From: a virus
DNA length: 54,742 bases
Strand: one strand, 5' to 3'
IMG/VR virus record: IMGVR_UViG_3300044299_001914
Coordinates: 1-54,742 of that record
Below, in pieces: positions 1 through 54,742 of the stretch. The notes beneath the pieces were generated by a model, which had not been told where the DNA came from, did no database searches, and saw only the letters and a program-made list of their open reading frames with translations. The position numbers were made by a program, and so were the translations under genes. Within the stretch, counting starts at the first letter, position 1. Each line of letters opens with the position of its first letter.

Positions 1-148
1 AACGCTACAATAAATCGTTCCTTTACGCTCCTTGAGAACCGAATACGGCTCTAAAGTTTGAATATCCGAAGCTATAACGCTCTCTAGCCTTATATCTCAT
101 ATTACCTGTATCGAAGTCTCCCTCTAATGCAGTTTGCATTGGTGATCT
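1..148. repeat. Terminal direct repeat copy 1 (identical to 54595..54742); assembly overlap of a circular or terminally redundant genome
   Basis: Read by eye: all 148 bases at the window start recur identically at the window end, so the unique length is 54594 bp. Confidence 0.9.
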
Positions 149-925
149 TTCAAAATACTTAAAGCCGTCAGGGCAGTCAGTTTTAATGAAATAAGCATCA
201 GTATCTGTAAGATAGTTATTTACAACATATCCATCAGGAAGCATGCCCATATTATTGATAGCGTTAATATCGTTATCAGATGTGGCTACTCTGCCTGGTG
301 TGTTGAGTAATCTATCAGCTACAAACACTAACTGTGGTGGAATGATGAGTTTCATTCCTCTTAAAGCAATATTAAGACCTCTATCATCTGTTAATGTAGA
401 AATACTAATAAGGTTGTCTTCAAGAGATGTCTCATTTAAGTCCGCCATAGTAGTTGCTCTGTTTGCTAGTGAACCACCGCCGCCTAGTGGGTGATCTGTA
501 GCTATCAAAGTTTTACCATCACCGCCAGTAACACTAAACGCATTGTTTAGTACTGCTGCAGCTTTGATTTGCTTTGTGTTTGCCATAGATCTAGCCAAGG
601 CTTTGGTATATCTTGCTCCGAGTCTATCATAAAGATTATCCTCAATTGCTTCTTCAGTAAGTGCGAAAGCTAAAGCCACTGTTTCGTGGGTATAACGGGA
701 AGTGTAACCTTCGTTAGCTGTATCAAATCTGACACCGCTTCCTTCAGCTTTTACTTCAGCATTACCAAACCCTACTATTAGGGTTTCTTCTTCAAACGCT
801 CTATCAGAAGTTTCTGCATCGTAGATCTCTGTATGTTGAGCTTCGTATCTGGCATATTCCATACCGAACAAAGCATTAAGACCTGGCTCTAATTCTTTAG
901 CTAATTGTGCTCTATTTATTGCCAT
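23..925 (-). CDS. Putative major capsid protein (300 aa)
   Basis: Last gene in the order terminase-portal-GroES-like-scaffold-decoration-like-capsid. Across the circular junction it is followed by a strong intrinsic terminator (54546..54570). The call rests on position and size only, with no motif-level family call. Confidence 0.6.
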   Translation of the reverse strand: MAINRAQLAKELEPGLNALFGMEYARYEAQHTEIYDAETSDRAFEEETLIVGFGNAEVKAEGSGVRFDTANEGYTSRYTHETVALAFALTEEAIEDNLYDRLGARYTKALARSMANTKQIKAAAVLNNAFSVTGGDGKTLIATDHPLGGGGSLANRATTMADLNETSLEDNLISISTLTDDRGLNIALRGMKLIIPPQLVFVADRLLNTPGRVATSDNDINAINNMGMLPDGYVVNNYLTDTDAYFIKTDCPDGFKYFERSPMQTALEGDFDTGNMRYKARERYSFGYSNFRAVFGSQGA

Positions 926-3442: not shown

Positions 3443-3626
3443 CTTGTATTACCCTTCCTAGCAGCTCTCTAAATATATTTTCTGCGTCAGCGAGAGAACT
3501 GTACCGCCCACGCAAAAACTCGTATTGTGCATGGTCTTTGCACCCTGCGAGCATTGTGTCTGTAATGTCTTCTCTTCTAAGTTCTAGCTCTTTTAAAAAC
3601 TTTTTACTTAACCAAGCTTCAGACAT
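3417..3626 (-). CDS. Hypothetical protein (69 aa)
   Basis: ORF tightly packed between neighbours. Its start shares 1 nt with the stop of the upstream gene at 3626. Confidence 0.5.
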   Translation of the reverse strand: MSEAWLSKKFLKELELRREDITDTMLAGCKDHAQYEFLRGRYSSLADAENIFRELLGRVIQDDIEDTGS

Positions 3627-3832
3627 TAATAAACACCAGAAAACTTACCGCCAAATTCTGCGGCTCCCATCCCTCTTGCTTTGCCTTTACCCATACCAGG
3701 TTTTGGTGTGGTATTTGCATCAAAAGTGCCAGCATCAGACTTTAAAGAAACACTACCCTTATTACTATAAGGATTTTTATTCTTCAAAGGGGTGGGGGTT
3801 TTCTGTTGTTTGATCTCTGTTCTTTTAATCAT
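3626..3832 (-). CDS. Small basic Gly/Lys-rich protein with C-terminal ARGMGAA..GGKF motif (68 aa)
   Basis: ORF directly downstream of the portal gene. The RG.GA motif is shared with ORFs 51623..52069 and 52069..52392. Confidence 0.5.
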   Translation of the reverse strand: MIKRTEIKQQKTPTPLKNKNPYSNKGSVSLKSDAGTFDANTTPKPGMGKGKARGMGAAEFGGKFSGVY

Positions 3833-16639: not shown

Positions 16640-17389
16640 TTAATCATTTTGCATACAAAAAATGCCACATTCAAAATTATAACTTTTAAGATCACGGCCT
16701 TTTGCGTCAACTGGTAGATCTTGCAACATTATTCTTTCACCCTTATAACGAACTAGCTTTGCACCTAACTTATTAGATGTCTTAACTCTTTGCTCAAAAA
16801 CACTTGGAAAAGTTTTTCTTACTAGATTCCAATATGTAGGTGAAGTTGCTTTTACACACCCAACACAGTTAGCGTTAGGAAAACCCAATGCATAGATCTC
16901 TGGCAGTTTTATACCTTCCTGCAACAAAATATCAAAACATCCCTGCTTTGTTATGCCCTCATCTATTAAAACAGGCAAAAGATTGTCTCCTTGCGTCTCT
17001 TTAAATTTAGCAGCCCGTTTCTTTTCATCAAAAGTAAAACCAAGAACAATATAATCGGTGTCATGGCGTAGTTCCCAATATCTTCTAGCGTTCTTTTTTA
17101 AATGTAAAGTGCATGGCGCACCAAAATTACTCGACATAAAAGCTGTTTTTTGCCAAACAGTCTCACAAGATTGATCTGGAAACTTAGGATTAATAGCATA
17201 TTCTATTTTCACACCTAGCCATTTCTCAACATCTTTTAAGAACCTTCTATTATCTTTATGTTCTTCCCTAATAGGATTGTTGACAACTCTGATTGTGTTG
17301 TCTTGACCATACAACTCTATGGTTTTCTTAGCTGCCACAGCACTTGCAGCACCACAGCTAAACCAGACAGTTATGATTTTACCTTTCAT
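16640..17389 (-). CDS. PAPS-reductase-like PP-loop ATP pyrophosphatase family protein (249 aa)
   Basis: N-terminal KIITVWFSCGAASAVAAK in the position of the PP-loop SGGxDS motif. C-terminal Cys cluster NANCVGCVK ... ECGIFC. ATGA overlap with the methyltransferase gene. Confidence 0.6.
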   Translation of the reverse strand: MKGKIITVWFSCGAASAVAAKKTIELYGQDNTIRVVNNPIREEHKDNRRFLKDVEKWLGVKIEYAINPKFPDQSCETVWQKTAFMSSNFGAPCTLHLKKNARRYWELRHDTDYIVLGFTFDEKKRAAKFKETQGDNLLPVLIDEGITKQGCFDILLQEGIKLPEIYALGFPNANCVGCVKATSPTYWNLVRKTFPSVFEQRVKTSNKLGAKLVRYKGERIMLQDLPVDAKGRDLKSYNFECGIFCMQND

Positions 17390-27600: not shown

Positions 27601-28074
27601 ATCGGATAAATCGCCAGTTCGTAAATTAAAATCGTTTTCATCTATTATGGTGTTGAGTTTTATTTTAGAACCATCTGAGAGAGTGCGTTCTTTAATTAAA
27701 TTTTGTAGACCAAGTTGACGCATGCCATAGGGTGTTAATGCCATTTGTCCTTTAGTATTTCTTATAAATCCTTGTTCTCCTACCTCATTTACTAACTTGT
27801 TTTCTTGTCCTATCGGCTCATTCTGTGCACGAACTTCATCAAAAATATTTTGTATAGCTTTATTTTGTTCTTCAGTAGTTTCTGCTAGAGCTAAATTTCT
27901 TCTTAGTCTTTTATTATCAACTCCTGTTTCATAGTCAAAGAAGAGTTCATCATAAAATGGTGACAATGCACCTTGAGCTATAAGTGCTTTTACCTTTTTT
28001 CTTGCTTCATCAGCGTTTTTTGCCTCTACAGTTTCAGTAACTCCAGGAGAAATTTCAACTTCAAATATTTCCAT
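24643..28074 (-). CDS. Large virion-associated / internal (ejection-type) protein candidate (1143 aa)
   Basis: Last and largest gene of the late operon, with a 1-nt overlap to the upstream gene. No catalytic motif recognised. The call rests on size and position only. Confidence 0.4.
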   Translation of the reverse strand: MEIFEVEISPGVTETVEAKNADEARKKVKALIAQGALSPFYDELFFDYETGVDNKRLRRNLALAETTEEQNKAIQNIFDEVRAQNEPIGQENKLVNEVGEQGFIRNTKGQMALTPYGMRQLGLQNLIKERTLSDGSKIKLNTIIDENDFNLRTGDLSDLAGVAGPILGTITGFIPQTRILKGMTRLMGNNAVLGRMLTAGVGSAAGKAAEEEVVETVEGFQLQERDEINDLYKQEFVFGSLAQGLGEGVFKIYQTFLGKRVQPSDSRVLFNQNQNRSVTDIMKLDRELGKEATERQIKDAIKKGKVKRFDWKMDKSAGAIPAQQSLERMLPGRAQSIAEQVLGNNRDKANASYLFAELNYLLRGIKSERSALDSYISSAQKGRLDKSIDEKLQALRSAESDVTNRLDKLLKDVTEDALQIGNYGHIPSRKDFGDSIKNTVSTARAFVTKEMGLKYQKVDNLMKDMRSIYKLEPDDVGDLQPVGRSPIPGVKPDFVLKTGQAKDVANAINAAINTTANEYFEKGLLRIKTFKDDFPGYNLSIQDPLVRGTTLEQVEKKFLDLYNKTGAEAITAGEGVSLFQLRNFAKDLDIYIKESPLPSPQRELLIDLKRLIDSTGSDTRRSIMTDLGKKTFADLNIRLKRQGISVTKQQADVINNSLKELRKINLLNAQRMQPFDNLNIQKIISNAKIGSTPPDDIYQKIFLGGSTRDLEDLFKAVRNYDEYLASINKPANTEAKLKAQLKQKLFDDAIYKATDGETRNINFTTFARQIMKFDKDLENKGKIDILFQDKTGGGSGELVRKTIFNLNRVQPNLKPKDLRDLVADFSGTKEGLDANAQGKAFIRGLTELANESEKVLKFRANRAIADLPEKGIEATTDTIFRPGNAKVIEDLKATVDDDVFNSIQQASMMKLLKRSVDFNGNGRINDIFKSGNLETALNSYGDETLEAMFGKETTRGLRDFQKQVDILTAGEIGRGGSAGGLVAAGLGAAVVFAPLASLKPLLGLVIARTALSNPRFVGLLSKNDPGSIAQAVQIMERAARQYGVRSVDGSFVEGTVDFADELFEDAKTAVGITDQQVEEQTGEGIKVYDQIRNQINELTKPLRPTPEVPEVVSPDLAQAQIPDPLSEERIEFAEQVAGRPILG

Positions 28075-30074
28075 TAGCTGCCTGTTGTTGTAGCGTTAGG
28101 ATTCAAGGTAATTTTATTAATCCTACCAGGTCGTGACTTAGTAGAAGTTACGAAATCATTTGCGTACGGGTTGCCTGCAAGCTCACCTGTTTCCATGTAA
28201 TCTATAAGGTCGTCATTTTGTATTAAACTCATATCACCATAGTTTTCCATACCAATATAGTTGGATTTCAGTCTCGCTATGGCTCCAGACATGTTTGTTA
28301 AAATACCCTCTCTTGTTAATCTTAACGCTTCAAGTGCTTCAGCATCTGTTTTAAAGAACTGTAAACTTCCTACTAATTCGTCAACAATCTGTCTATCTAA
28401 GTTTGAAATAGTTTTACCTGACTCACCAAGAATATCTCTAATATTTTTTTGTTTTATTTGGTTAAGCAACACTTTGGCTCTTACTCTTGGACTCAACTCA
28501 TTCCATCCTTTACCCTCAGGATCTGGTTGACCATCAGTGTTAAAAACAGCGCCCGCTTTGTCAAATATCTCTTGGATAACAGCTCTAGCAGATGTCGTAT
28601 CTTCGTTTAATATTATTTCTTCAACTCTACCAACAATTTCTAATGTGTTATTTCCACTAACCACCTCATTGTAATCTGCATTTATTTGCCCAGCTAAATC
28701 TATATTTTCTTTTGGTTTTAATTTTTCTTTTGCCCCTGCAGCAATTTCTGCTAACTTAATCTCTCTTTGTCTTTCAGCTTCTGCTATATCACGGGCAGCT
28801 CTTTCCTCAGCTGCTTTGGCAGCACCAAGCACAAGACCTGGGCCAAATTGTCCAGTTTCAGACAAACCTGCACCAACATTTCTAATAAAATCAAGAAACC
28901 TATCTGTGCCAAAGAATCCAGGTGTATTAAGTTTCTTTTGTGTAGCATTTCTAGCTATATTAGGATCACCTTTTTCTTCTTGTTCAGCTGCAACAGATGC
29001 AATGAGATCTTCTGCATTTTGTGCAGGTAATAACTCTTCGTTTATCAGTGCATCAGCATCTGGTATATTCATATTAGCTATTTCAGTTTTTAATTCATCA
29101 GGTGACAAACCTTCAAACTTTGTTTCAATACCAAGTTTTGTGTCTTCTTCGGTTATATCTAAGTTTACTAACGGTGGTTGAATGTCATTCAACAAGCTTG
29201 TTATCTCATCGACATCAACATCTTTTGGTCTTTGTACATCCTCAGTATCAAATCTTGCTTCCAAATCTTGTCTTTGTCCAGATAGCTCATCAAGTGTCGT
29301 AGATATTTCGTCTATATTAAGCCTAGTATTAAATGGATCGATGTCGCTAGTGATGTCTTTTACAGGACGCATACCCACTTCTTCTGGTCTAATGTCTGGG
29401 TTTGCACGCAGATATGCTTGATCTTCAGGACTATACTGTTGCAACATTTGTTCTCTAGCAAAATTTCCATCACTTACTTTAAGACCCATATCGTCTTGAC
29501 GAAAATCAAAACTTGTTGGCTCAGGTAAAGGAAAATCAAGTTGTGAAACATCAGGTTGTTTTTCTTCTTCCTCTTCGACAATCCTACGCATCATAAACCT
29601 AGCACGGTCTTCATCTGTAGGTATATAAGACTCATCTCTTGGTATTGTCAAACCTCCTAAACCAACTTCAACTGGATCTGCAATATCTTTGAGTGCTTGA
29701 CCTATGCCGAGTCTGTCTTCGCCTATCACTTGACCTGCTAAGCCTGCAGTTTGTCTTACAGCAGGCTCAAGAAACCTAGCAGTTCTCAGAACAGCATCAG
29801 CCACGTTTGTGCCGATATCTTCTCCCAACTGAAAAGGCCCAAGTTTCGGAGCATCTTTTTTCTGAAAATCCTCTAATATTCTTTGTACTGCATCACCTTT
29901 TTCCAAACTATCATCATATAAAATTTTATATGGATTGAATCCAAAGGTATTTATAAAATCAGGCTTTATATTGTAAACTTCACCTGTTTTTCTATCTCGT
30001 ATTTGAAAGTCGCCTAGACCTTGATCTTCAGCTTGACCACCAATACGGAACATTTTTCTGTTAAGAAAATTCAC
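28074..30074 (-). CDS. Large virion-associated protein candidate (666 aa)
   Basis: Long ORF translationally coupled on both sides. Acidic and helical in composition. Confidence 0.4.
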   Translation of the reverse strand: MNFLNRKMFRIGGQAEDQGLGDFQIRDRKTGEVYNIKPDFINTFGFNPYKILYDDSLEKGDAVQRILEDFQKKDAPKLGPFQLGEDIGTNVADAVLRTARFLEPAVRQTAGLAGQVIGEDRLGIGQALKDIADPVEVGLGGLTIPRDESYIPTDEDRARFMMRRIVEEEEEKQPDVSQLDFPLPEPTSFDFRQDDMGLKVSDGNFAREQMLQQYSPEDQAYLRANPDIRPEEVGMRPVKDITSDIDPFNTRLNIDEISTTLDELSGQRQDLEARFDTEDVQRPKDVDVDEITSLLNDIQPPLVNLDITEEDTKLGIETKFEGLSPDELKTEIANMNIPDADALINEELLPAQNAEDLIASVAAEQEEKGDPNIARNATQKKLNTPGFFGTDRFLDFIRNVGAGLSETGQFGPGLVLGAAKAAEERAARDIAEAERQREIKLAEIAAGAKEKLKPKENIDLAGQINADYNEVVSGNNTLEIVGRVEEIILNEDTTSARAVIQEIFDKAGAVFNTDGQPDPEGKGWNELSPRVRAKVLLNQIKQKNIRDILGESGKTISNLDRQIVDELVGSLQFFKTDAEALEALRLTREGILTNMSGAIARLKSNYIGMENYGDMSLIQNDDLIDYMETGELAGNPYANDFVTSTKSRPGRINKITLNPNATTTGS

Positions 30075-32176
30075 TAGCTTGTTCCTTGTCTAGGAGCAAG
30101 AGCACCATAAGCACTAAATGCAGCACCTAGACCAGCGGCAGTAGGATCAGTAGGCATACCATATTGAGAATCAATTTGTGTTCTTGATCCTTGATAACCA
30201 GGTAACATTCCTGCAAGCTGAGCCAACACTTGTAATGGTCTGAGTTGTTGTCCTAATTGTTGTTCATATAATCTTTGCAACCCTGTCTCAGCAATTCCTC
30301 TACCTATACTACCGAAGCCTGCTAGTTCACCTCTTTGTCCTGCTCGAAGCTGTTCTTGTGTTCTTCCAAGATCTGTCATCTGTCCACCAAATCCAGCTAA
30401 TCTTTGAGCTAAGGCACCTGCGGCACTGCCTCGACCTGTGCCAATTCCTAGTAAGCCTTGTGCTGCAAGTCTCCTTGCTTGTTGTTGTCTTGCAAATTCA
30501 CTGAGTCCAGTTCTTTGTGCCTCACTAAATCCTCTTTGTCTAATATTACCAAGAGCTTGTGCTAAACCCTCTCCAAGAGCTTCTCTACGCTCCATAGCAC
30601 CAAGTCTAGCTCTACTGCCACCAAATGCACCAGAACCAATTTCTCTAGCTCTTGCAGCTATATCCTGTTGTTCACCTGCCTCAAACACATCATCAATAGT
30701 TCGTTGCACTACCGCATCTTCAAATGGGTTGTAAAACTGTTGTGTCATACTAGGATCATAAGCACCCATGGTATTTTGAAATATTTCTTCAGCTTGAGAG
30801 TAATAAGGATCTTGTAAAGCCTCAGCTCGTCTAGATTGCTGAATAGCTTGATTTATTAACCTTCTGTTTTGTTGTAAAAATGGTTCAAAACCACCAAGGC
30901 CTGCAACTGCTTGTTGTCTTGCTAATAATTCTAATGGTGAAAGTCCTGCAGTTTGTTGTAATGGGACATCACTTCCTATTAAATTAGCACCAGCTTGTTG
31001 TAATTGATTAAAGAAGCCAGGTTGATCTGCAGTGCCAAAATATAAAGATCTCAGTAAAGGATCTCCTAAAACTTCAGAAGCTTGTTGATTTAACAACACA
31101 GGATCTATTGCTCCTTGCGTCATTTGTGCCTGCATCGAATCTGTTGTACCAGTAGTAGTTGCTGTAACTGTGGGATCTGTTGCACCAGCTGTTGCACCAG
31201 TAGCAGTTGCCATCCCTGTTGTATCATCAGCAGGTTGTGAAGTGCCTACACCAGTATTACTAAATCCAGGTGCACCAGCTAAGGGATTACCACCTGTTAC
31301 ATCAAATCCAGGAGTGCCACCTGCAACAACTTGGTCTCCACCTCCGATTGGCATAAGTGATGGTGGTCTTACTCCTACGCTTAAAGAGCCTCCGCCTGGA
31401 GTTGGAAACTCTTTGTAGGTGCCTCCACCTGGACCTCCGATTGACATTGGAGGTTGTGGTCTACTTCCTGGTGGACGAAGACCAAGGCCTGGTCTTTGTA
31501 TGCCTGTGTACGGTCTTAAAACTGATGTTGGGTTTGATGGAGTTGGAGTAGCAGAGAATATTGTGCCATCTGGTCCCACAGGTGGACGAGCCAACTCATT
31601 TGAAAAATTAGGTCGGCGTGGTGGTACAGGTAATGGTCTTGCTGTTGGCAACTCGTTCGTATCTGGTGGTGTAAAAGGTATTGATGGACCAACAGGCAAA
31701 GCAGAAACTATATCGTCTGCTTGTGGAAGACCAGTTTCATATTTAGGCATGGGTAAACCAACAGGTCTGCCAATAACACCTGTTTCCCTCTCTAAAGTTT
31801 GTGGAGGTGCTACGGGTAAGGCAACGGGCCCTCCTTGTATTAACCCAGCTCCTCCCATCGGTGGTGTAAATGGTGGCCTACCTATGTTTGTTGGTGGAGC
31901 CACTGGTCTACCTATGGCAAAGCCTGGATTATTTCTATCAAATTCACTTGGACCACCTATCGGCATCCTAGCTCGAGCATCTCCAACTGGCATCCTAGCT
32001 AGAGGATTTCCAAACATGCCACCACTAGGCCCACCTATTGATATAGGTGGTGTTGGTCTGCCTCTTACTGGTCCTCTAAAAGGTACACCTCTACCCACAG
32101 GTAAAGCTCTTGAAATACCACCGCCTCTAGCAGGAGTTGATTTCGCTATTCCAGATAGTCTTTTGAATAAACTCAT
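30074..32176 (-). CDS. Pro/Gly-rich virion protein candidate (700 aa)
   Basis: The N-terminal ~300 aa are dominated by degenerate P/G/R motifs (IGGPSGG, IGRPVAPP, MPIGGPS, PPMSIGGPGGG). The C-terminal half is Q/A/G/L/R-rich. Confidence 0.45.
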   Translation of the reverse strand: MSLFKRLSGIAKSTPARGGGISRALPVGRGVPFRGPVRGRPTPPISIGGPSGGMFGNPLARMPVGDARARMPIGGPSEFDRNNPGFAIGRPVAPPTNIGRPPFTPPMGGAGLIQGGPVALPVAPPQTLERETGVIGRPVGLPMPKYETGLPQADDIVSALPVGPSIPFTPPDTNELPTARPLPVPPRRPNFSNELARPPVGPDGTIFSATPTPSNPTSVLRPYTGIQRPGLGLRPPGSRPQPPMSIGGPGGGTYKEFPTPGGGSLSVGVRPPSLMPIGGGDQVVAGGTPGFDVTGGNPLAGAPGFSNTGVGTSQPADDTTGMATATGATAGATDPTVTATTTGTTDSMQAQMTQGAIDPVLLNQQASEVLGDPLLRSLYFGTADQPGFFNQLQQAGANLIGSDVPLQQTAGLSPLELLARQQAVAGLGGFEPFLQQNRRLINQAIQQSRRAEALQDPYYSQAEEIFQNTMGAYDPSMTQQFYNPFEDAVVQRTIDDVFEAGEQQDIAARAREIGSGAFGGSRARLGAMERREALGEGLAQALGNIRQRGFSEAQRTGLSEFARQQQARRLAAQGLLGIGTGRGSAAGALAQRLAGFGGQMTDLGRTQEQLRAGQRGELAGFGSIGRGIAETGLQRLYEQQLGQQLRPLQVLAQLAGMLPGYQGSRTQIDSQYGMPTDPTAAGLGAAFSAYGALAPRQGTS

Positions 32177-33300
32177 TACACTCTCCCAATATCGTTATAT
32201 TGCTCAAACATCTTCATAAGTCTGTCCATGTTTTTTGCGCCCTTTTGTCTGTCAGGTTTACCACTTGGCATTATTTCAATACCAGTTTCTGTTTTGGTTA
32301 CCTTAAATCCACCTAAGCCATTGTTAGCTGCAGATGTCATAACAAACTCTCCATCACTGAGCATGGCAGGTATGTCATCACTTGTGCCTGTACCAGGGCC
32401 TATTGATGGGCCACCCATACGCATATCTAATTCTTGTAATCCACCCATGGCTGCAGGTTTTCTAATACCTAGATCGAAACCTTGAAAGGTTGGCTGTGGC
32501 ATAAGATCTGGTCTGATTGATTGTCTGATATCTTTAAGTCCACCCTCTTTCTCTTTAAAATCTTCTTTGACCGCTTTGCCGTACAATGCAGCTAGAGCCA
32601 TCAGACCAGCGTTGCCACCAAATCCACCGCCATCTCCTCTGCCAAAAAAGTCACCTATTTTTCCAGGCAATGTGGCTGATCCTTGTTCTGCTTCAGCTTT
32701 AGCAATTGCAGCAGCTTTTTCTTCATCTGTCATAGCTTGTATTTCTGCATCTGTATAACCATATTGCTCTAAAGCAGCAGATCGACCACCAAATCCAAAC
32801 TGATCACCAATAGTTTTTATAAATTGTGGCGTGCTTCCAACATCATCTGGATCTCTTTTAAATAAATTTCCTGCTATTCCTTTAAGACCTTCTCTAAATT
32901 TGCCGCTTGCTCCAAAAAATTTACCTGAAGTTGCTTTACTTGCACCTTTACCTAATATCTTACCTAATGGTCCAGCTCCACCTATGCCAGCAATGCCGAG
33001 TCCGACTGCAGCTATAGGTGCAACTTTTTTAACTACTTTTTTGAGACTTTTACCTAATTTTTTTAGAAATCCAAACTCAGCCATACCTGTAATTGGATTA
33101 ATTGACATACCTTGACCTACAGTATATTCATTCGGATCAAGCCCTACAGCCATCATTTCTTGTTGTATTATTTGTTGGGTTTGTGGAGAAATAACTGGTG
33201 GTACTACCATCTCCCCTGGTGCTACATGGGCAAGCATTGTATCTTCCCCTCTGCCTAGACCTGCTATACCGCCTGGATTATTCATTTCATTCATGCTCAA
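32176..33300 (-). CDS. Gly-rich virion protein candidate (374 aa)
   Basis: GEDTMLAHVAPGEMVVPP near the N-terminus and long G/A/K-rich low-complexity stretches. Confidence 0.4.
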   Translation of the reverse strand: MSMNEMNNPGGIAGLGRGEDTMLAHVAPGEMVVPPVISPQTQQIIQQEMMAVGLDPNEYTVGQGMSINPITGMAEFGFLKKLGKSLKKVVKKVAPIAAVGLGIAGIGGAGPLGKILGKGASKATSGKFFGASGKFREGLKGIAGNLFKRDPDDVGSTPQFIKTIGDQFGFGGRSAALEQYGYTDAEIQAMTDEEKAAAIAKAEAEQGSATLPGKIGDFFGRGDGGGFGGNAGLMALAALYGKAVKEDFKEKEGGLKDIRQSIRPDLMPQPTFQGFDLGIRKPAAMGGLQELDMRMGGPSIGPGTGTSDDIPAMLSDGEFVMTSAANNGLGGFKVTKTETGIEIMPSGKPDRQKGAKNMDRLMKMFEQYNDIGRV

Positions 33301-47742: not shown

Positions 47743-48042
47743 TTAAATACCTCTAATAATTTTTGCTAATTCTTCCTCTCCACCACCTATTAAATCTTGT
47801 ATTAGAGAGGCTTTATAAGATTTTAACGCATTTTTTATATAAATCAAACACACTTGATATATAGCATCTTTGTAAGCTTTGGCTTGTTCTTTGATATGTG
47901 GCTCCTTGTCTTCAGAGTAACTTACAATTTTTTCTGTAAGTCTTTCAGCCCAAAATTCAGGGGGATGGCCACCAAAATTTGTAGTTTTAGCTTCAATAAT
48001 ACCTAATTCTGGCATCCCAGCAGGTGTGATCTTATCTACCAT
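47743..48042 (-). CDS. Hypothetical protein (99 aa)
   Basis: ORF 1 nt upstream of the next gene. Confidence 0.5.
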   Translation of the reverse strand: MVDKITPAGMPELGIIEAKTTNFGGHPPEFWAERLTEKIVSYSEDKEPHIKEQAKAYKDAIYQVCLIYIKNALKSYKASLIQDLIGGGEEELAKIIRGI

Positions 48043-48767
48043 TTTTTAGGTTCTGGTGGTTTTAAATGACTGTCGTTGCGATCAATTAGCGTTGGTTCTT
48101 GCGATTTTTTAACTATATCTAGATTATCAATGCGTTCTAGCTTTATACCCTTTTCATCTACTAAAATGATATATGGATTTTTAAGTCTATGATAACCATA
48201 AAGTTTCTGTTCTGCTGGTACATCTGTATCTAATAAACTTGATGTATGCGCTACTTCTACTTGCATACCCGCAGAAATACACTTACTCAACCAGAACTCT
48301 ACGCACCCTCGCCCTGCTTCTGCAAAGTGCAAATTACCTTTGTAAGAGAAATCTATACCAAAAAGTTTAAGATTTGCAACTTCATTCCAAAATGCAAAAG
48401 CTATAGCATAGGCTACTGTGTTGTTTAGGTAATGACAATTTGAATACTGGACTACTTCTTCAAGTGGATATTCAACCAATCCAGGGCATCTTTCATCTAA
48501 CTCACATGTATATATAGGACCTTCATGTTCTAAAAGCATTTCTTTCATACTTTCTGTCTGACCACCAGCGTCCTCTGTATCTAAAAATCGTGATGCAGGA
48601 TCCATCATAAATACTCTATCGTGATATATTACCGATGCTACTCCATTTATGGCCCATACTTCATCAAAATGAACCCCATGCGATTTAGCTAAATTATAAT
48701 CAAACCAACTTTTACCCATACCAACGATGGCAACTGTTTTGCCTTTAAGGCTTTCTGTATTACTCAT
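48036..48767 (-). CDS. Rossmann-like protein, possible DUF115/MAF-type glycosyltransferase-like enzyme (243 aa)
   Basis: KGKTVAIVGMGKSW ... EVWAINGV ... DRVFMMDP ... NTVAYAIAFAF..ANLKLFGIDFS resembles the DUF115 (MptE/motility-associated-factor) layout. Recognition is weak. Confidence 0.3.
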   Translation of the reverse strand: MSNTESLKGKTVAIVGMGKSWFDYNLAKSHGVHFDEVWAINGVASVIYHDRVFMMDPASRFLDTEDAGGQTESMKEMLLEHEGPIYTCELDERCPGLVEYPLEEVVQYSNCHYLNNTVAYAIAFAFWNEVANLKLFGIDFSYKGNLHFAEAGRGCVEFWLSKCISAGMQVEVAHTSSLLDTDVPAEQKLYGYHRLKNPYIILVDEKGIKLERIDNLDIVKKSQEPTLIDRNDSHLKPPEPKKW

Positions 48768-48774
48768 TTTTATT

Positions 48775-49449
48775 TTATGAAACCGATGACCTCAAAGAAT
48801 CGTAACGGTATTCATCTCTTCTCCCCCTAGCTTCTGCAAGATTTTTCAACCTTGATATTTCCATCATAAAGCGTTGCTCATATTGTTGTTGCATGTCGCT
48901 TTCCCCTTTTAAAAATATATTTGCCTCTACTAAACACCCATACAATAAAGCGTTTCTAGCATTAGTAGACAGCCATGTGCCCGTAGTATCTGTAACTAAT
49001 GAAGTTGGTTTGAAAAGGTAATGTAACTCAACACTGTAATTGGAATCTGGCACAGGACTTACTATTAATGTAGAGCCATTATTTGTCGCTGTAGAGAGCT
49101 CTTTATCAAAATCAGCATAATACTTGGGTAAATCCCTAAGCGTTGTATCTGTTGGATCTACGATGTATTCACGCATAAAAGATGGATGTTTTTTATCTAA
49201 ATAATGATAATCACCATTGCCATCAATAACTGCGAGTGAAAAACTCATTTGAAAGTCTGACGGTGTTGTTAAATATGTGTTGCCTGCGGTTAGAGAGCCT
49301 GTTACATTTTTTCTAAAAAAGTCAAACTGCACTAATTCAAATATGCGTTCTTCAGCGTTTTTTATAAAGTCATCTAAGCTGTTTACAAAGGTAGTTTCTT
49401 CGTTTTCAACATAGTTTTGTATTAATGTCTTGAGTTCGGCTAATGTCAT
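48775..49449 (-). CDS. Head-tail joining / structural protein candidate (224 aa)
   Basis: ORF in the neck/tail block, with an ATGA overlap to the upstream gene. Confidence 0.4.
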   Translation of the reverse strand: MTLAELKTLIQNYVENEETTFVNSLDDFIKNAEERIFELVQFDFFRKNVTGSLTAGNTYLTTPSDFQMSFSLAVIDGNGDYHYLDKKHPSFMREYIVDPTDTTLRDLPKYYADFDKELSTATNNGSTLIVSPVPDSNYSVELHYLFKPTSLVTDTTGTWLSTNARNALLYGCLVEANIFLKGESDMQQQYEQRFMMEISRLKNLAEARGRRDEYRYDSLRSSVS

Positions 49450-49787
49450 GTGATAACTATTGTAACCTCACCTACACTACCTGTCATCTTGGAAACTGTA
49501 AAGTTTGCAGGTAAAGTTGATGGGTTCATGTAGTCTGGTCTAAAGATATTTGAATTTACAACAACAACAAACCCTTCACCTTCTTCTGCGTCATTATTAG
49601 GACGTGGTTTGTATAAAGCCTCAGGATCCGCAGTAGCAGTGAGTGGCTCTAATTGTGGATGTTTTGGTTCATAACAATGTGGACAAACCTTAGCACCATT
49701 CCATTCTTCTTTTAACTCTAGAAGCTTATATTCAAAACCACATCTATCACATAATGCTTTTGCAAATTTACCTAAAGCGTATGCCAT
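49446..49787 (-). CDS. Zinc-ribbon protein (113 aa)
   Basis: CDRCGFEY...VCPHCYEPKHPQ gives a CxxC-n21-CxxC ribbon. Confidence 0.5.
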   Translation of the reverse strand: MAYALGKFAKALCDRCGFEYKLLELKEEWNGAKVCPHCYEPKHPQLEPLTATADPEALYKPRPNNDAEEGEGFVVVVNSNIFRPDYMNPSTLPANFTVSKMTGSVGEVTIVIT

Positions 49788-50458
49788 TAGTTCATCCTTA
49801 TGTCAGGTCTTACTCTAAATGATGCTCTATCCTCATCTTGATCTGCAGCTCTTCTAAATTCTTCCTCATACATTGCTTTAAGTTGTGGTGTAAGTTGTGG
49901 ATTCTTCTTCATAGACAAGTAGTACGCTAAACCAGCAACAAAACAAGGATAAAACCTAAACGGCATGTCCATAGTATTAGTTGCAGCATCTGCATCATCC
50001 ATTCTTACAAGCTTGTTAAAAACTAAAATATCCGTGCTATTTTCTGGTGCAGGCCATATTTTTAAAGCAGGTGTAGTTAATTTATCAAAAAAGAACTGTG
50101 AGGGTCTTGCTTTTGTTTCTTTATTTGGAATGTTTAGATATTCAGATCTACTAATTCTGTTCATGCTAATATCAGTTTGCTCTTGGTTTACAGTCCTACG
50201 CACCACTACATCTAATACATCAATTACATTAGCATTTAATGAATAACTAGAAGTGCCTTCAGTAACAGTTTGTGTGGCTTGTTCTATAGTCCATTGATTG
50301 AGACCTCTATTAGCCCATTCAGCTAACATAAGATTTACACTTCTAATAGCAGTTTTAAGATCATATCCTGTTCTTAATTCAGCACCACACCTCTCGTAGG
50401 CCTCTTCTATAAACTCTGTTACATTCGGTTCAAAATTTGTGCTGCCAGATAATGCCAT
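49787..50458 (-). CDS. Head-tail adaptor-type structural protein candidate (223 aa)
   Basis: ORF with 1-nt overlaps on both sides, in the neck position. No enzymatic motif. Confidence 0.4.
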   Translation of the reverse strand: MALSGSTNFEPNVTEFIEEAYERCGAELRTGYDLKTAIRSVNLMLAEWANRGLNQWTIEQATQTVTEGTSSYSLNANVIDVLDVVVRRTVNQEQTDISMNRISRSEYLNIPNKETKARPSQFFFDKLTTPALKIWPAPENSTDILVFNKLVRMDDADAATNTMDMPFRFYPCFVAGLAYYLSMKKNPQLTPQLKAMYEEEFRRAADQDEDRASFRVRPDIRMN

Positions 50459-51147
50459 TAATCTTTCCTATCATCTTGATTATATAGATTATCAAATGTT
50501 GTGTATGAATCCATATAACTATCGTGTTTCTCTGCTGAGTGAATCCATTGACTTGGTGAAAAATCGGGCGGCCCGTCACCAACACGCCAAAGAGCTGGAT
50601 TTGTAGCTCTCACTCTATTGTTTGGTAAAGCTACAAAATTACCAGTATATTCACCAGCGTCTGTCAAATATAACACATGTGACTGTTTATGTTGAGCAGA
50701 ATCGTCTGCGATACTATTTTCTGTGTAATCTACAGTAAACATATAGGTGCCTGTATAGAACTCACCCCCTATTTTGCATATCCAGGGAGAAGAGCTAACT
50801 CTATCTAATACTACTACTGAATGATGATGACTCAAACAATCCCAAGGTTGTGCTAAATGATCCTCCATAGGTGTAGGCCATTCATCCACTGGTACATCAG
50901 CTATAAGTGCTTGTATTGGCATCCTTGCCCACATAGCACCACCATGTATATTTTCATCTGGATGATCCTCTAGATCTGTTTCGCAACCAGTGAATACCAC
51001 TTGAAAAGACAAAGATCTGTCTGGAATAGTGTTAACTGCAAAGGCTAAGGCATGCAGATATTCTCCGTGATATTTTTGATGGTTTGCTGTAAATTCTTTA
51101 CGCACCCAACATTTGAACTGTGGTATGTTCGATATTAGATAAGACAA
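50458..51147 (-). CDS. Hypothetical protein (229 aa)
   Basis: His/Trp/Asp-rich ORF. No recognised motif. Confidence 0.5.
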   Translation of the reverse strand: MSYLISNIPQFKCWVRKEFTANHQKYHGEYLHALAFAVNTIPDRSLSFQVVFTGCETDLEDHPDENIHGGAMWARMPIQALIADVPVDEWPTPMEDHLAQPWDCLSHHHSVVVLDRVSSSPWICKIGGEFYTGTYMFTVDYTENSIADDSAQHKQSHVLYLTDAGEYTGNFVALPNNRVRATNPALWRVGDGPPDFSPSQWIHSAEKHDSYMDSYTTFDNLYNQDDRKD

Positions 51148-51168
51148 AATAACCCCCTAGTCTTAGTT

Positions 51169-51423
51169 TTAAACTCTTCCGCCTTTTGACATGTATTTAC
51201 TAGCTTTTCCACCTCTAGCCATGTACTTTGAAGCTTTACCACCTTTAGCCATATATTTAGATGCCTTCCCACCTTTTGCCATATATTTAGATGCTTTTCC
51301 GCCCTTTGCCATATATTTTGAAGCCTTACCGCCTTTTGCCATGTATTTTGAGGCTTTGCCACCTTTAGCCATGTACTTACTGACTTTACCGCCCATAGCG
51401 TATCCTTTTGTTCTTCTATACAT
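51169..51423 (-). CDS. Tandem-repeat basic protein, ~8 x MAKGGKASKY (84 aa)
   Basis: The 10-aa unit repeats with near-identical protein sequence, while the underlying 30-nt DNA units differ at synonymous positions. Confidence 0.6.
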   Translation of the reverse strand: MYRRTKGYAMGGKVSKYMAKGGKASKYMAKGGKASKYMAKGGKASKYMAKGGKASKYMAKGGKASKYMARGGKASKYMSKGGRV

Positions 51424-51425
51424 AA

Positions 51426-51614
51426 TTAATCCTTTTTCTTTGGTCTGCCTTTCTTAGCAGTTGTTTTCTTTGCAGCAGCCTTTTTTTTCGGCTTTACTTG
51501 ATTGCCAGAAGAATCTAAATAAATACGATCTTCGACAACGGGCTGATCTGGTCTGACTTTTGCATCAAGTCTTGCTTGTAATTTTGGATCTACACTAGAT
51601 TTTTTCTTTGGCAT
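51426..51614 (-). CDS. Small lysine-rich basic protein (62 aa)
   Basis: K-rich termini (MPKKKSS..., KKKAAAKKTTAKKGRPKKKD). Confidence 0.55.
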   Translation of the reverse strand: MPKKKSSVDPKLQARLDAKVRPDQPVVEDRIYLDSSGNQVKPKKKAAAKKTTAKKGRPKKKD

Positions 51615-51622
51615 ATCTTCTC

Positions 51623-52069
51623 CTAACTAATAGTTGTGACCTTTCTTTTGTCAGGTCTGACAGCTCCACAACCTCTTGCTATAAAGCCACCTTTTTTCAT
51701 TTTAACACGATTTTGTTTTTTCATGGCTTTTTCGATTGCCATACCTCTTTTCATCTCATAGGATGAAATTTTGCCATCTTTATCAAGATCTGCTTTTTTT
51801 CTATTCTTTAACATTGTTGTGCCTCCTGTCTTCATAGAAACTCTTGCCTTTTTTGTGTTTGCAACCACTGTTTTACCTTTAGCCCCTGCTCTTTTTTTCT
51901 TTCTTGCAGTTTTTGCTCTTTCTGACTTAGATAAACTTCTAGCTTTTGCAGCTGGTAAACAACGATCTGGGTTTTTTTTATCTTTACTTGTGCCGCAAGG
52001 CCCTTTAATAGATCCATCTGTGCCAATGCGCACCCAGTTTTGTTCACGCCACTGCTTAAGTTGTCCCAT
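51623..52069 (-). CDS. Lys/Arg-rich basic protein with Cys pair and C-terminal KKGGF.ARGCGAV motif (148 aa)
   Basis: WVRIGTDGSIKGPCGTSKDKKNPDRCLPAAKA followed by K/R-rich sequence. The motif is shared with 52069..52392 and 3626..3832. Confidence 0.55.
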   Translation of the reverse strand: MGQLKQWREQNWVRIGTDGSIKGPCGTSKDKKNPDRCLPAAKARSLSKSERAKTARKKKRAGAKGKTVVANTKKARVSMKTGGTTMLKNRKKADLDKDGKISSYEMKRGMAIEKAMKKQNRVKMKKGGFIARGCGAVRPDKRKVTTIS

Positions 52070-52392
52070 TACCTTAGTCTATCTGACATGACAGCACCTT
52101 GGCCTCTAATACTTACGAAGCCACCCTTAGCCTTTTTTTTCCTTTTTTTACTGCCTTTTGCATAATTAGGATCTTTACAATACTTCGATGCAGCCATATT
52201 TGCATATGCTGAAGGGTATGTATCAAAAGTTCTTTTTGCCCAAGCTTTGCCCTCTGGGCAAATTTTGCCTCCACTTTTAACTTTACCTCCCTTTTTCATT
52301 TTAAGAGTTTGTAATGTTTTTGCTTGTTTTGCATGCGTTTTGCTTGCTTTTTGCAGACCCTTAATAACTTTTTTTAATTTTTGTTTAGCCAT
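52069..52392 (-). CDS. Lys-rich basic protein with YPSAYAN motif and C-terminal KGGFV.IRGQGAV (107 aa)
   Basis: CPEGKAWAKRTFDTYPSAYANMAASKYCK flanked by K-rich segments. Confidence 0.55.
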   Translation of the reverse strand: MAKQKLKKVIKGLQKASKTHAKQAKTLQTLKMKKGGKVKSGGKICPEGKAWAKRTFDTYPSAYANMAASKYCKDPNYAKGSKKRKKKAKGGFVSIRGQGAVMSDRLR

Positions 52393-52720
52393 AATTTAAC
52401 TCGTCTAAATGATAGTTTAGCGTAAGCTCCTCGCCAACACTAATTTTTTTTGATGTAATTACATTAAAAACTCTATAGTCGTCCCAGTCTAATTCTTCGC
52501 TAAGGTAACAATTTGAATCTTCTGAGTGATTTAAAAAGCCCCCTATGGATGTTCTTACATAACCTTTTATAATAGGAACTTTTATATGTGACATACCTAA
52601 ATCAAAATCTTTGTCAATATTATCTACCGCAAACAGTCCATATCCTTCTATAGGGCTTTTTTGAACTTCAATACAATCTGGTAATGGTTTGTAATAAAAT
52701 TTATTATAAACAGGATACAT
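52385..52720 (-). CDS. Minimal SET-domain protein lysine methyltransferase (vSET-like, 111 aa)
   Basis: KSPIEGYGLFA (GxG), GGFLNHSEDSNC (NHS..N), VGEELTLNY (ELxxxY). Aligns by eye along its whole length with the 119-aa chlorovirus PBCV-1 vSET. Confidence 0.8.
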   Translation of the reverse strand: MYPVYNKFYYKPLPDCIEVQKSPIEGYGLFAVDNIDKDFDLGMSHIKVPIIKGYVRTSIGGFLNHSEDSNCYLSEELDWDDYRVFNVITSKKISVGEELTLNYHLDELNYG

Positions 52721-53010
52721 TATTTAGTTCTGCCAAATTTTTTACGTATTGAGTCTTTACCACGCCTAAATATTTCTGCTTGCCTTGGCTTGCCACCATA
52801 CTTAGATCTTTGTTCACCCACTGTTAATATTTGTATTAATCTAGCAAAAGGTTTTTTAGTTTTTTTAACTTTAGCAACTGTATCTCTTGCATCTTGGACT
52901 GTAGCATATTTAATAGAAACTGTATCTTTAGGGTTTTCATCAGTATAAAGCCTTCGACCTGAACCTTTTGGTTTTTTACCAGTGCCTTTCTTTGGATCTG
53001 ACTTAGCCAT
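52720..53010 (-). CDS. Lys/Arg-rich basic protein (96 aa)
   Basis: K/R/G-rich termini around LYTDENPKDTVSIKYATVQDARDTV. 1-nt overlap with the SET gene. Confidence 0.55.
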   Translation of the reverse strand: MAKSDPKKGTGKKPKGSGRRLYTDENPKDTVSIKYATVQDARDTVAKVKKTKKPFARLIQILTVGEQRSKYGGKPRQAEIFRRGKDSIRKKFGRTK

Positions 53011-53310
53011 TTAACATTTCCACCTTCTTCTAGCTTGTCTAATTCTTGAATTTGGATTGTTTCTTGTTTTTGCAGAACTTTTCTTTAATTGCCCTAGCGA
53101 CCTTGCACAAAAAGATTTTCTTCTTTTAGCTGCTTTGCTACCTTTTTTTACCTTGCCAGTAACAGCGCCTTTTAATTTAGATCCTGGGTTAGCTTTTCTA
53201 TAAGCTCTTATTCCTTTCTTAGTCATACCCGCCCCTTTTTTAGTGGGGCGGTAATTACCACCTTTACCAGTTGTTCTGCGTATTTGTTTAGCTTTTCGTC
53301 TGGTAGCCAT
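53011..53310 (-). CDS. Lys/Arg-rich basic protein (99 aa)
   Basis: About 40 percent K+R by eye (MATRRKAKQIRRTTGKGG...KAAKRRKSFCARS...RQARRRWKC). Confidence 0.55.
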   Translation of the reverse strand: MATRRKAKQIRRTTGKGGNYRPTKKGAGMTKKGIRAYRKANPGSKLKGAVTGKVKKGSKAAKRRKSFCARSLGQLKKSSAKTRNNPNSRIRQARRRWKC

Positions 53311-53313
53311 TCA

Positions 53314-53718
53314 TTAATAGTTTTTGTTCAAAACTAAGATTATCGAATACGCATCGCCACTAGAGTGACCAACTGTTGTGAAGTCTATATCGCCTGTAAC
53401 ACCTGAACCTGCATTGTTAGGTATACCACTAAATCTATCATCATAATACTCATCACCTGTGCTATCTGCAGGTAGTGGTATTGCTAAAACATTAGTGGAT
53501 GCGTCAAATTCTATATCTACACCCATACCTCTGGTTGCCCAGTATATGCGTGCTATAGAGACGCTGGTACAAGCTTCTCCTGCACTGTTGGAGGTCAATG
53601 CGGATACATCTACTTTTTTAACACTAGATTCGCCTGTACCATCAGACTCGTTTGTAAACTTTAAGATAGCAACTCTTTCACCATCTTGGATAGTTTGTGA
53701 CGTTACTGTATCTGCCAT
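53314..53718 (-). CDS. Beta-rich structural protein candidate (134 aa)
   Basis: ORF following the 238-aa gene. S/T/G/D-rich. Confidence 0.45.
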   Translation of the reverse strand: MADTVTSQTIQDGERVAILKFTNESDGTGESSVKKVDVSALTSNSAGEACTSVSIARIYWATRGMGVDIEFDASTNVLAIPLPADSTGDEYYDDRFSGIPNNAGSGVTGDIDFTTVGHSSGDAYSIILVLNKNY

Positions 53719-53727
53719 TGTTTACTC

Positions 53728-54444
53728 CTATCTTTCGACTGCTGCAACTACGTAATCAATTGTCATGGTTTGTGCAGAAGCTTCACCATTTTGAATACCA
53801 AATGATACTGTTAATTCTTCATCATCTGGTAAGTTAGTGATTGCAACACCCACAGGTTTTGCGTTATTTATAGAATAAAAAACTTTAGAGGCATCTGGAT
53901 CTATAAACCATGTAGTAGTAATGAAAGTATCGTCAGCCATTGTTGCTACATCTTCAGTAGTAGTAGCTGTGTTATCTTTCTCAACTAAGAAATCTAGGCC
54001 TGCATCACCATCTGCTGAGATAAAAAATACACCGTCTGTTGTATCAAGTGGTGTTGTATCAGTAATACCCAGACCCATTACAAAGTCTGATTGGTCAACG
54101 TCATTCACTTTAAATCTAGCTGAAAAGTAAGCTTTTTTACTGGTGCTAAGTTTAAAACCTTCACCTTTTAATTGTAAAAAGTCTAAGTCATTATCTCCAG
54201 CAGCATTAGTAAGCAATAAAGCTCCACCAGCTGATGAAGTTACGGCTTCAGATGCACTTCCTGTGCCAGCTTCAGTAGTTGTAATCGTCCAATCACCAGA
54301 GTTATATGTAAAAAAGTCATTGTGATACATATAAAACGTCTGATCTGACGGATATGGTGCGAACATAGGCTGGTTTTTCTTGTGCTCGGAAGCAACAGTA
54401 TTACCTGCCCAAAGTATTAGGTTTTGAAAATGTGGATTAGCCAT
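53728..54444 (-). CDS. Beta-rich structural protein candidate (238 aa), first gene after the capsid terminator
   Basis: Strong RBS (aaaggagttcataATG). T/A/D/G-rich beta-type composition. Confidence 0.5.
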   Translation of the reverse strand: MANPHFQNLILWAGNTVASEHKKNQPMFAPYPSDQTFYMYHNDFFTYNSGDWTITTTEAGTGSASEAVTSSAGGALLLTNAAGDNDLDFLQLKGEGFKLSTSKKAYFSARFKVNDVDQSDFVMGLGITDTTPLDTTDGVFFISADGDAGLDFLVEKDNTATTTEDVATMADDTFITTTWFIDPDASKVFYSINNAKPVGVAITNLPDDEELTVSFGIQNGEASAQTMTIDYVVAAVER

Positions 54445-54545
54445 TATGAACTCCTTTATCTTGTATTAATGGAAACCTTGCGGCCCTCATCAAGCTAATT
54501 AATTATATAACCTCTTAAATTCTATACCTAAATTTACGGACAAGC

Positions 54546-54570
54546 AACAAAAAAGGGAGCCGAAGCTCCC
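54546..54570 (-). terminator. Rho-independent terminator downstream of the capsid gene (across the circular junction)
   Basis: The minus strand reads GGGAGC-ttcg-GCTCCC followed by TTTTTTGTTG, about 45 nt after the capsid stop once 54594 is joined to 1. Confidence 0.8.
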
Positions 54571-54594
54571 TTAGAAAATTGTAGATGAGTTAGA

Positions 54595-54742
54595 AACGCT
54601 ACAATAAATCGTTCCTTTACGCTCCTTGAGAACCGAATACGGCTCTAAAGTTTGAATATCCGAAGCTATAACGCTCTCTAGCCTTATATCTCATATTACC
54701 TGTATCGAAGTCTCCCTCTAATGCAGTTTGCATTGGTGATCT
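54595..54742. repeat. Terminal direct repeat copy 2 (identical to 1..148); carries a duplicated 3' end of the capsid gene
   Basis: Exact 148-nt match to the window start. Confidence 0.9.

Follow-up and report, generated by a model that had tools for sequence, protein, structure and literature searches.

The window analyzed here is the whole 54,742-nt stretch of the viral record IMGVR_UViG_3300044299_001914, and its positions 51169-53310 hold a block of seven open reading frames (ORFs), one encoding a minimal SET-domain protein and six encoding small, extremely basic proteins. A first-pass annotation had read this block as a lysine methyltransferase accompanied by its candidate substrates. All seven ORFs are present on the minus strand at exactly the coordinates it gave, and in order of transcription they are labeled F, E, SET, D, C, B and A. 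They are tightly packed: F and E abut (TAAATG), E and SET overlap by 1 nt (TAATG), SET and D by 8 nt and D and C again by 1 nt (TAATG), followed by an 8-nt spacer containing GGAG between C and B and a 2-nt spacer between B and A. The translational coupling predicted on both sides of SET is thus borne out by the overlaps. The six basic ORFs contain 29-36% lysine plus arginine (K+R) at isoelectric points (pI) of 10.4-12.0, their outer neighbors having a pI of 4-5, and in a non-overlapping ORF set of the 54.7-kb genome every ORF with a K+R fraction of at least 0.25 falls inside the block. Here, the greedy ORF choice took an antisense repeat artefact in place of ORF A, and the composition of A was added separately. 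Compared with related contigs, SET, C, D, E and F show ratios of nonsynonymous to synonymous substitution rates (dN/dS) of 0.05-0.12 (dS about 0.9-1.4) and can be regarded as real genes; the same holds for ORF A, whose near-identical peptide repeats are written in varied synonymous codons.

An exact 148-bp direct terminal repeat (1-148 = 54595-54742) shows the window to be complete; the genome of about 54.6 kb is either circularly closed or terminally redundant. Its large terminase shares 56-61% identity with those of the Pelagibacter phages HTVC027P and HTVC023P (61% with TerL of HTVC027P). The window phage is a podovirus-type relative and an HTVC023P-type pelagiphage, and HTVC027P is its closest cultured relative.

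The SET gene (52385..52720, minus strand) encodes a 111-aa minimal SET-domain protein lysine methyltransferase, which matches the Pfam SET family with 34.4 bits (cut-off 22.4) and carries the motifs GYGLFA, FLNHSEDSNC and GEELTLNY. Across 32 homologues, down to 41% identity, the residues G26, G28, N64, H65, N70, E97, E98 and Y103 are invariant, and these comprise the S-adenosylmethionine (SAM)-binding GxG (G26-Y-G28), the NH dyad (N64, H65) and the catalytic tyrosine (Y103); GYGLFA aligns with the GxG of MLL1 and MLL4. Searched against the PDB, the single sequence retrieved the MLL1 SET domain (4.6e-6) and vSET of the chlorovirus PBCV-1 (2.3e-5), and a profile of 23 homologues retrieved KMT2 SET domains (about 1e-10), vSET (1.5e-8) and Legionella LegAS4 (3e-6). 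Consistently, an AlphaFold2 model (predicted local distance difference test score, pLDDT, 85.6; predicted template modeling score, pTM, 0.76) found vSET (3kma_A) as top Foldseek match in the PDB, with an E-value of 8e-7, TM-scores of 0.66/0.69 and 106 columns spanning all 105 target residues. This model had 291 PDB matches at E <= 0.001, and the 50 listed are SET-domain structures. The likeness to vSET claimed in the first-pass annotation therefore stands, as profile searches return the SET fold and the SAM-binding GxG is invariant. The protein is acidic (pI 4-5), unlike its six basic neighbors, and evolves under a dN/dS of 0.06, at saturating dS. Its homologues listed at full length mostly measure about 100-123 aa. 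In the best viral structural match (BFVD A0A218ML49, from an uncultured virus) the SET domain is part of a 971-aa protein, and thus in some viruses it belongs to a much larger polypeptide.

A comparison with known enzymes gives further hints on what this protein could do. Like vSET (A612L) of PBCV-1, it is viral, about 110-120 aa long, devoid of pre-SET and post-SET zinc modules and equipped with GxG, NHS and E-E-x-T-x-x-Y motifs. The two proteins share, however, only 24% identity, the phage gene is an optional cassette, and any packaging, dimerization or activity of the phage protein would be putative. KMT2/MLL proteins and Legionella LegAS4/RomA are the strongest sequence-profile matches and have the same catalytic core, but they are large, multidomain and act on eukaryotic histones, whereas the phage protein is reduced to this core and has fewer inserted residues separating its GxG motif from NHS. 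To call it a minimal SET enzyme of the vSET type, consisting of the bare catalytic core, is a fair description, judged by motifs and model. The target must differ from that of vSET, which is an H3K27 methyltransferase: the nearest cultured relatives of the window phage infect Pelagibacter, a bacterial host without histones, and a substrate other than H3K27 is thus required.

Some eukaryotic SET proteins, e.g., MLL5 and SET-24, are inactive, and the activity of the phage SET family is a prediction. The ORF could accordingly be a remnant that has lost catalysis, or encode a protein with a structural role only. We consider this very improbable, since GxG, NH dyad and catalytic tyrosine are kept down to the most distant of the aligned homologues, dN/dS is low, and the model, which is confident, agrees with active SET enzymes along the full length of the domain. 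By motifs and predicted fold, the phage enzyme is almost certainly active, presumably in SAM-dependent methylation of protein lysines.

The family as such is not new to the databases. PF00856 is recorded as a precomputed assignment for nearly all homologues, JGI and NCBI name members of the family as SET-domain proteins, and among predicted viral structures several entries are titled 'SET domain containing protein [uncultured Caudovirales phage]'. Phage SET genes are hence already on record through automatic annotation. In the literature searched, no paper on phage SET enzymes was found, and as far as searched a SET-type lysine methyltransferase is unstudied in bacteriophage.

The six basic proteins are built from small recurrent modules. 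F (53011..53310, 99 aa, pI 12.0) is a free-standing DUF6321 domain (PF19846; 45.6 bits, cut-off 28.5), which shares two conserved cysteines and the motif RRKS[FY]CARS with its homologues. This family comprises at least 8000 clusters at 90% identity (2510 at 50% identity), and the domain usually forms the extreme C-terminus of proteins of 99-850 aa. In about 56 related loci (e.g., L030, 1327-1605) the position of F is taken by a different basic protein, 'KTVTLNRP...KKRKVVFVKG...RKKSYCARS...YWARKDWDC', which has an RRKS-x-AR motif in common with DUF6321 and a relative in the siphophage Kolga (gp56; L101, 44414-44653). E (52720..53010, 96 aa, K+R 0.30, dN/dS 0.05) consists of an 'LYTDENPKDT' module and is variably present among relatives. 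D (52069..52392, 107 aa; phrog_27331, 1.8e-25; dN/dS 0.12) combines an N-terminal 'KGLQKASKTHAKQAK' module, a cysteine-pair 'YPSAYAN' core and a 'KGGF..RG.GA' tail.

C (51623..52069, 148 aa; phrog_23735, 5.3e-24) is composed of a cysteine-pair module 'WV..G..PCG...C.P', an EF-hand-type loop DLDKDGKISSYE and a 'KKGGFIARGCGA' tail. The calcium-binding loop at residues 93-104 is canonical in form, with a sub-threshold Pfam match (19.1 bits); a similar loop, DLTGDGEVTKAD, occurs in HTVC027P gp44 (L087, 8690-8956). Read from the sequences, the modules of C, D and F each keep exactly two cysteines. B (51426..51614, 62 aa, K+R 0.32) matches no known family; many related loci have it, with 58-98% identity, and it is missing from others. 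A (51169..51423, 84 aa) consists of seven GGKASKYMAK-type decapeptide repeats, five of them exact and the rest near-identical. Tandem Repeats Finder reports a 30-nt period with 6.6 copies and 80% DNA matches at 51182..51379, and the copies differ by about 20% in DNA, mostly at synonymous positions. The number of repeats is not fixed, and relatives have between 1 and about 10 KGG units (10 in L104, 2704-3051). The repeat region (51182-51399) also opens two spurious ORFs, at 51135-51362 (minus strand, another frame) and 51191-51457 (plus strand).

Family searches with the basic ORFs remained largely empty. Pfam at E <= 1 returned only DUF6321 for F and sub-threshold matches for C (EF-hand/dockerin) and A (Spt5 repeat), and NCBIfam gave a single chance match, D against a fimbrial-protein model (12.3 bits, cut-off 517 bits). 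In PHROGs, C, D and F fall into families of unknown function, and B and E had no match. A histone-like or HU-like identity was rejected, as no DNA-binding family of Pfam or NCBIfam was matched, whether HU/IHF, H-NS or histone fold. The literature searched on DUF6321 and on HTVC023P-type phages held no description of the SET enzyme or of the basic block.

Homologous blocks were found with and without SET. In IMG/VR, 80 contigs carry SET at 74-100% identity, and in nearly all that can be judged it lies inside or at the edge of a basic array, upstream of a gene for a 229-aa protein. This downstream gene is far more widespread, with at least 599 matches in IMG/VR vs 101 confirmed SET relatives. 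The absence of SET was sampled in 48 new loci found via the 229-aa gene, each with at least 2.5 kb upstream, and in 46 of them the retrieved sequence contains no SET gene. Apart from two loci with none, the SET-less loci hold one to six ORFs with a K+R fraction of at least 0.25 in the same slot. Counting four SET-positive loci already known among the 80, SET is thus carried by about 6 of 52 sampled relatives.

Two of the SET-less contigs, L103 and L104, contain F-E-D-C-B-A in the same order. Identity to the window is 87-97% for F, E, D and C and 67-98% for B and A, and in both contigs the stop of E overlaps the start of D. A DNA alignment of window positions 50458-53718 with L103 gives 90.8% identity over 2927 columns, and the only large gap, 328 nt at 52393-52720, equals the SET gene. 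The two sequences also differ in ORF A, where the 30-nt repeat has one unit more. The upstream junction of the cassette (52718..52725, minus strand) reads AAATAATG and pairs with AAATTATG at the downstream junction (52390..52397, minus strand), so that an imperfect 8-nt repeat flanks SET; the SET-less contigs have AAATAATG once, at the E/D junction. SET-less L103 and the SET-positive contig L027 come from the same metagenome (3300049812). SET is therefore an optional, dispensable single-gene cassette, an indel in otherwise near-identical blocks, and the basic proteins do not need the SET enzyme.

The surroundings of the cassette are variable, too. The slot shows more than 30 architectures among 56 related loci, with fusions and fissions; module calls were motif-based, as clustering by BLAST lumped most basic ORFs through low-complexity K/G repeats. 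Its upstream border is a gene for a 134-aa acidic protein (53314..53718, minus strand; dN/dS 0.02), which is conserved in related loci. The downstream border is the 229-aa acidic protein (50458..51147, minus strand; phrog_3704, 1.5e-29; 1074 clusters), whose gene is found in nearly all sufficiently long SET-positive loci and in many SET-negative ones. The adjacency of SET and the 229-aa gene turned out to be a matter of position only, since most loci with this gene have no SET.

Outside this group of phages, enzyme and basic proteins are also found apart. The gene settings of distant SET homologues (42-65% identity) are unrelated, and no neighbor exceeds a K+R fraction of about 0.23. In the siphophage Kolga, SET follows the primase/helicase gene, and in the cyanomyophage P-SSM7 it follows nrdB. 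P-RSM6 has it between its PAAR and gp25 baseplate genes, and another T4-like myophage contig near gp59/gp32. In other phages of about 53 kb, it is found close to a resolvase among small genes or behind a 794-aa protein. By tblastn, Kolga has no homologue of A-F; one related 'KFKVFV...RASFRARH' basic protein is encoded 21 kb from its SET gene. The first 50 kb of P-SSM7 hold no homologue of the basic modules. SET thus shows the behavior of a mobile accessory gene and turns up here and there in marine podo-, sipho- and myophages that are not related to one another.

Conversely, HTVC027P has a basic block, gp44-gp52, between gp43 and its GroES-like gene, and the compared 37.6 kb of its genome (20000-57595) contain no SET. 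The block includes homologues of C (gp50, N-terminal module), of both halves of D as separate genes (gp51 for the N-terminus, gp49 for the core) and of F (gp52, 83% identity), along with KGG-rich and EF-hand-like small basic proteins. It differs from the block of the window in lying upstream of the capsid gene and in having neither SET nor the 229-aa gene. In overall spread, basic modules also outnumber SET by far (412 vs 6 phage records; at least 8000 vs 464 protein clusters). In the window, a seventh small basic ORF (3626-3832, minus strand, 68 aa, pI 10.2, ending '...GKARGMGAAEFGGKFSGVY') lies between the portal and GroES-like genes, which is approximately the slot of the whole HTVC027P block.

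Taken together, co-occurrence of the enzyme with its candidate substrates does not hold across lineages, neither in the sister loci (46 of 48 without SET) nor for the distant homologues or HTVC027P. The arrangement of enzyme plus substrates proposed in the first-pass annotation is thus not established; what it had found is an unstudied new member of the SET family. Its statement that such an arrangement is undescribed in bacteriophage agrees with our search, as SET plus a basic block was not found in the literature searched. On balance, we lean toward SET and the basic array being two separable things that share one recombination-prone slot of the late operon as independent neighbors. The cassette may have landed in a slot where small cassettes swap at gene-boundary microhomologies, and SET would here be made with the late genes. 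The array itself is made up of mini-domains in varying combination, which mostly carry KGG repeats or a conserved pair of cysteines.

For an independent enzyme, the target would not be specified by its neighbors at this locus. Most likely it would be a protein common to many infections, belonging either to the host or to the proteins that many phages share, which fits the patchy presence of SET across phages and hosts and in early/metabolic as well as baseplate/head settings. The enzyme could reach such a target by early expression or, as a late gene in the window phage, by late synthesis and possible packaging. Packaging of vSET in the chlorovirus virion offers a parallel for such delivery. 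Another is found in T4, where the enzyme Alt is packaged (PMC5512222).

Several points weigh against independence. In nearly all examined SET-bearing loci of the clade, the gene stays within the basic array or borders it, and in the window it is in addition translationally coupled; a functional link would look alike. The loss of SET in sisters shows that methylation is dispensable, not that it never happens. Furthermore, the neighbors resemble the known substrates of minimal SET enzymes, which are DNA-binding proteins of small size, basic and rich in lysine.

The co-encoded basic proteins are hence the most obvious local candidate substrates, and SET could methylate one or several of them late in infection, optionally tuning DNA binding, packaging or stability. 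This alternative draws on the co-directional packing with stop/start overlaps on both sides of SET, on the persistence of SET in or beside the array across the shuffled architectures, and on the 16-30 lysines per neighbor in repeated short motifs (KASKY x7, RRKSF). Small basic chromatin proteins are the targets of other minimal SET enzymes, e.g., vSET and the archaeal Go1-SET, and the SET-positive Kolga does encode its one related basic protein, if elsewhere in the genome. Nevertheless, SET is missing from sisters in which F, E, D and C are nearly unchanged, basic modules are far commoner than SET, distant SET homologues have no basic neighbors, HTVC027P possesses a block without SET, and SET-positive P-SSM7 lacks a module homologue in the part compared. 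We therefore regard methylation of the neighbors as rather doubtful and still favor independent neighbors.

What the basic proteins do can be approached from their relatives in cyanophages. Long proteins of 400-850 aa combine modules that are separate genes in the window, including E-type ('LYTDE[DN]PK'), C-type ('W..GWV...PC....P.C') and D-N-terminal ('K.L+KS..SHAKQA') segments, a D-core-like segment ('C...WPSAYA...C'), another cysteine-pair segment and DUF6321 in last place. Such multi-module proteins occur in the 412 phage records mentioned above, mostly of T4-like cyanomyophages, and Pfam scans of ten long DUF6321 proteins detected no enzymatic or known structural domain except one DUF192. 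The relationship is strong for F (6e-32 to the metagenomic 850-aa protein P0279, 4.6e-10 to S-SCSM1 ORF29), good for E (4.5e-7 to P0279, residues 63-137) and modest for C (16-18 bits with hidden Markov models, HMMs; P0279 matches phrog_23735 at 2.7e-5). For the core of D it is a likeness at motif level, i.e., a W/YPSAYA motif with flanking cysteine pair and broadly similar spacing; an HMM built from close relatives reached about 6 bits, and homology beyond the motif was not retained. At least F, E and C thus recur as segments of large multi-module proteins of T4-like cyanophages.

Like the window proteins, the DUF6321-terminated cyanophage proteins (S-SCSM1 ORF29, S-B43) are lysine-rich, encoded among structural genes and contain C- and F-type modules plus a D-like motif (E-type in P0279). 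In contrast to them, they are fused, lie next to the terminase gene and have a probable protease site before DUF6321, whereas the window encodes stand-alone proteins of 62-148 aa after the capsid gene. ORF29 of S-SCSM1, located between tail-fiber genes and the terminase gene, is labeled 'virion protein' in GenBank, and the S-B43 homologue 'structural protein'. The S-SCSM1 publication describes mass spectrometry of CsCl-purified particles with 45 proteins detected, 13 of them without known function, and an annotation table in which the BLAST hits of ORF29 are 'hypothetical protein' only (PMC9602691). As BLAST gives nothing but 'hypothetical protein', the label most likely reflects the virion proteome; this is deduced from the label and not from a peptide table.

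A further feature of the fused forms is a conserved site: in 36 of 36 fused sequences (among P0260-P0375), [L/I/V]-x-E followed directly by DDMKGMSVKSGHKRPTK (EDDMKG subtype) precedes DUF6321. The prohead protease gp21 of T4 cleaves at [L/I/V]-x-E, and cleavage there, if used, would free an F-sized basic domain inside the prohead. The T4 internal proteins IPI-III and Alt resemble the window proteins in being small basic proteins or an enzyme encoded by late genes, and the gp21 sites of T4 have their counterpart in the fused DUF6321 homologues; co-packaging with the DNA in the head is proposed for the window proteins. They differ in that no sequence similarity exists, the window phage is podovirus-type, and its stand-alone proteins have no [L/I/V]-x-E site of this kind; no capsid-targeting sequence was recognized in them, nor was a prohead protease identified in this phage.

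Owing to the virion and structural labels, the [L/I/V]-x-E site, the cysteine pairs and the calcium loop, we lean toward the basic proteins being virion-borne, probably inside the head, where they would most likely be DNA-associated. Of the earlier proposal of virion-packaged, DNA-condensing histone-like proteins, packaging is thus plausible, F and weakly C being homologous to S-SCSM1 ORF29, and 'histone-like' finds no backing in the sequences. The case for packaging draws on homology to distant cyanophage proteins, which is statistically robust only for F/DUF6321, weaker for C and E and at motif level for D, and no virion proteome of an HTVC023P-type phage was found within the searchable literature.

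In addition, DUF6321 is highly conserved and mobile among unrelated phages, for which a conserved intracellular host target is also plausible. The basic proteins might accordingly be late intracellular factors binding nucleic acids or ribosomes, or host-takeover peptides, with an incidental place in the operon. The extraordinary conservation of F (84-99% identity in the top 120 DUF6321 clusters, and that of gp52 noted above) and the movement of DUF6321 between unrelated phage types would suit such a target, as would its location near the endolysin gene, not among head genes, in T7-like pelagiphages. The different positions of the array in HTVC027P and the window, and the lack of an identified capsid-targeting signal, point the same way. 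The virion or structural labels of the multi-module homologues and the conserved prohead-protease-type site in fused forms argue otherwise; cysteine pairs and the EF-hand-type loop, by inference from sequence, fit an extracellular, oxidizing and calcium-rich setting, and the array lies within the head/neck gene region in both pelagiphage types. An intracellular role appears less likely to us, and virion cargo is the reading we retain.

Both lines could meet in SET-bearing pelagiphages, where SET might methylate capsid-borne basic mini-proteins or, packaged with them, hit host nucleoid or ribosomal proteins on entry. We regard this combination as distinctly unlikely and speculative. If true, it would represent a switchable, 'chromatin-mark-like' modification of phage-delivered DNA-associated proteins that varies between co-occurring sister phages and could, e.g., evade a host defense recognizing basic mini-proteins.

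Irrespective of its target, the phage SET protein represents a compact and evidently functional vSET-like family, whose members are dispersed over phages of SAR11 and Prochlorococcus that abound in the sea. Its presence/absence polymorphism in near-identical, co-occurring genomes offers a tractable entry to lysine methylation during infection of a histone-less host. The more surprising by-product of the analysis is the family of basic mini-domains, of which the window encodes stand-alone copies: abundant, highly conserved and mobile, these are split in pelagiphages and fused in cyanophages. Since they are probably virion-borne in the latter, they point to a widespread, uncharacterized class of phage particle cargo.

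Regarding the wider setting, the minus-strand gene order across the joined genome ends runs from terminase, portal, a GroES-like gene and three head-region genes to the major head protein (23..925, minus strand; phrog_371, 6.9e-24), which lies directly upstream of the block once the ends are joined. It is followed by a terminator-like hairpin, a 238-aa gene, the 134-aa gene, the basic block with SET and the 229-aa gene, and then by homologues of HTVC027P gp64 and gp65, a virion/tail protein homologous to gp66 and the tail fiber. The block is thus located between capsid-side and neck/tail genes, as had been described, and SET sits in a co-directional late array. The hairpin (54553..54572, minus strand) resembles an intrinsic terminator, with an 8-bp stem, five GC pairs and a T run, and is the only strong same-strand terminator in the scanned region 48000-54742; an AT-rich stretch separates it from the 238-aa gene. 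Placed upstream of the block and just past the capsid gene, it looks like the usual attenuator setting high capsid expression.

The 229-aa protein bordering the slot is rich in histidine and tryptophan. Its PHROG label is 'ferredoxin', yet it has four cysteines only and no obvious iron-sulfur motif. No match was obtained in the PDB (profile search), Pfam or NCBIfam, and its AlphaFold2 model was unusable (pLDDT 32), giving no fold.

Two further regions of the genome caught our attention. At 17386-19173, a 595-aa DNA methyltransferase-like ORF covers with its residues 1-594 only about 280 PHROG profile positions, which suggests a large insertion or fusion. Positions 24643-33300 hold four large consecutive ORFs of 1143, 666, 700 and 374 aa, of which the first three have no PHROG match. 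The 700-aa ORF has a Gly/Arg/Pro-rich N-terminus, and the segment 30001-32000, largely within its gene, shows a G+C content of 0.45 vs about 0.37 elsewhere. These large ORFs may encode internal or ejection proteins.

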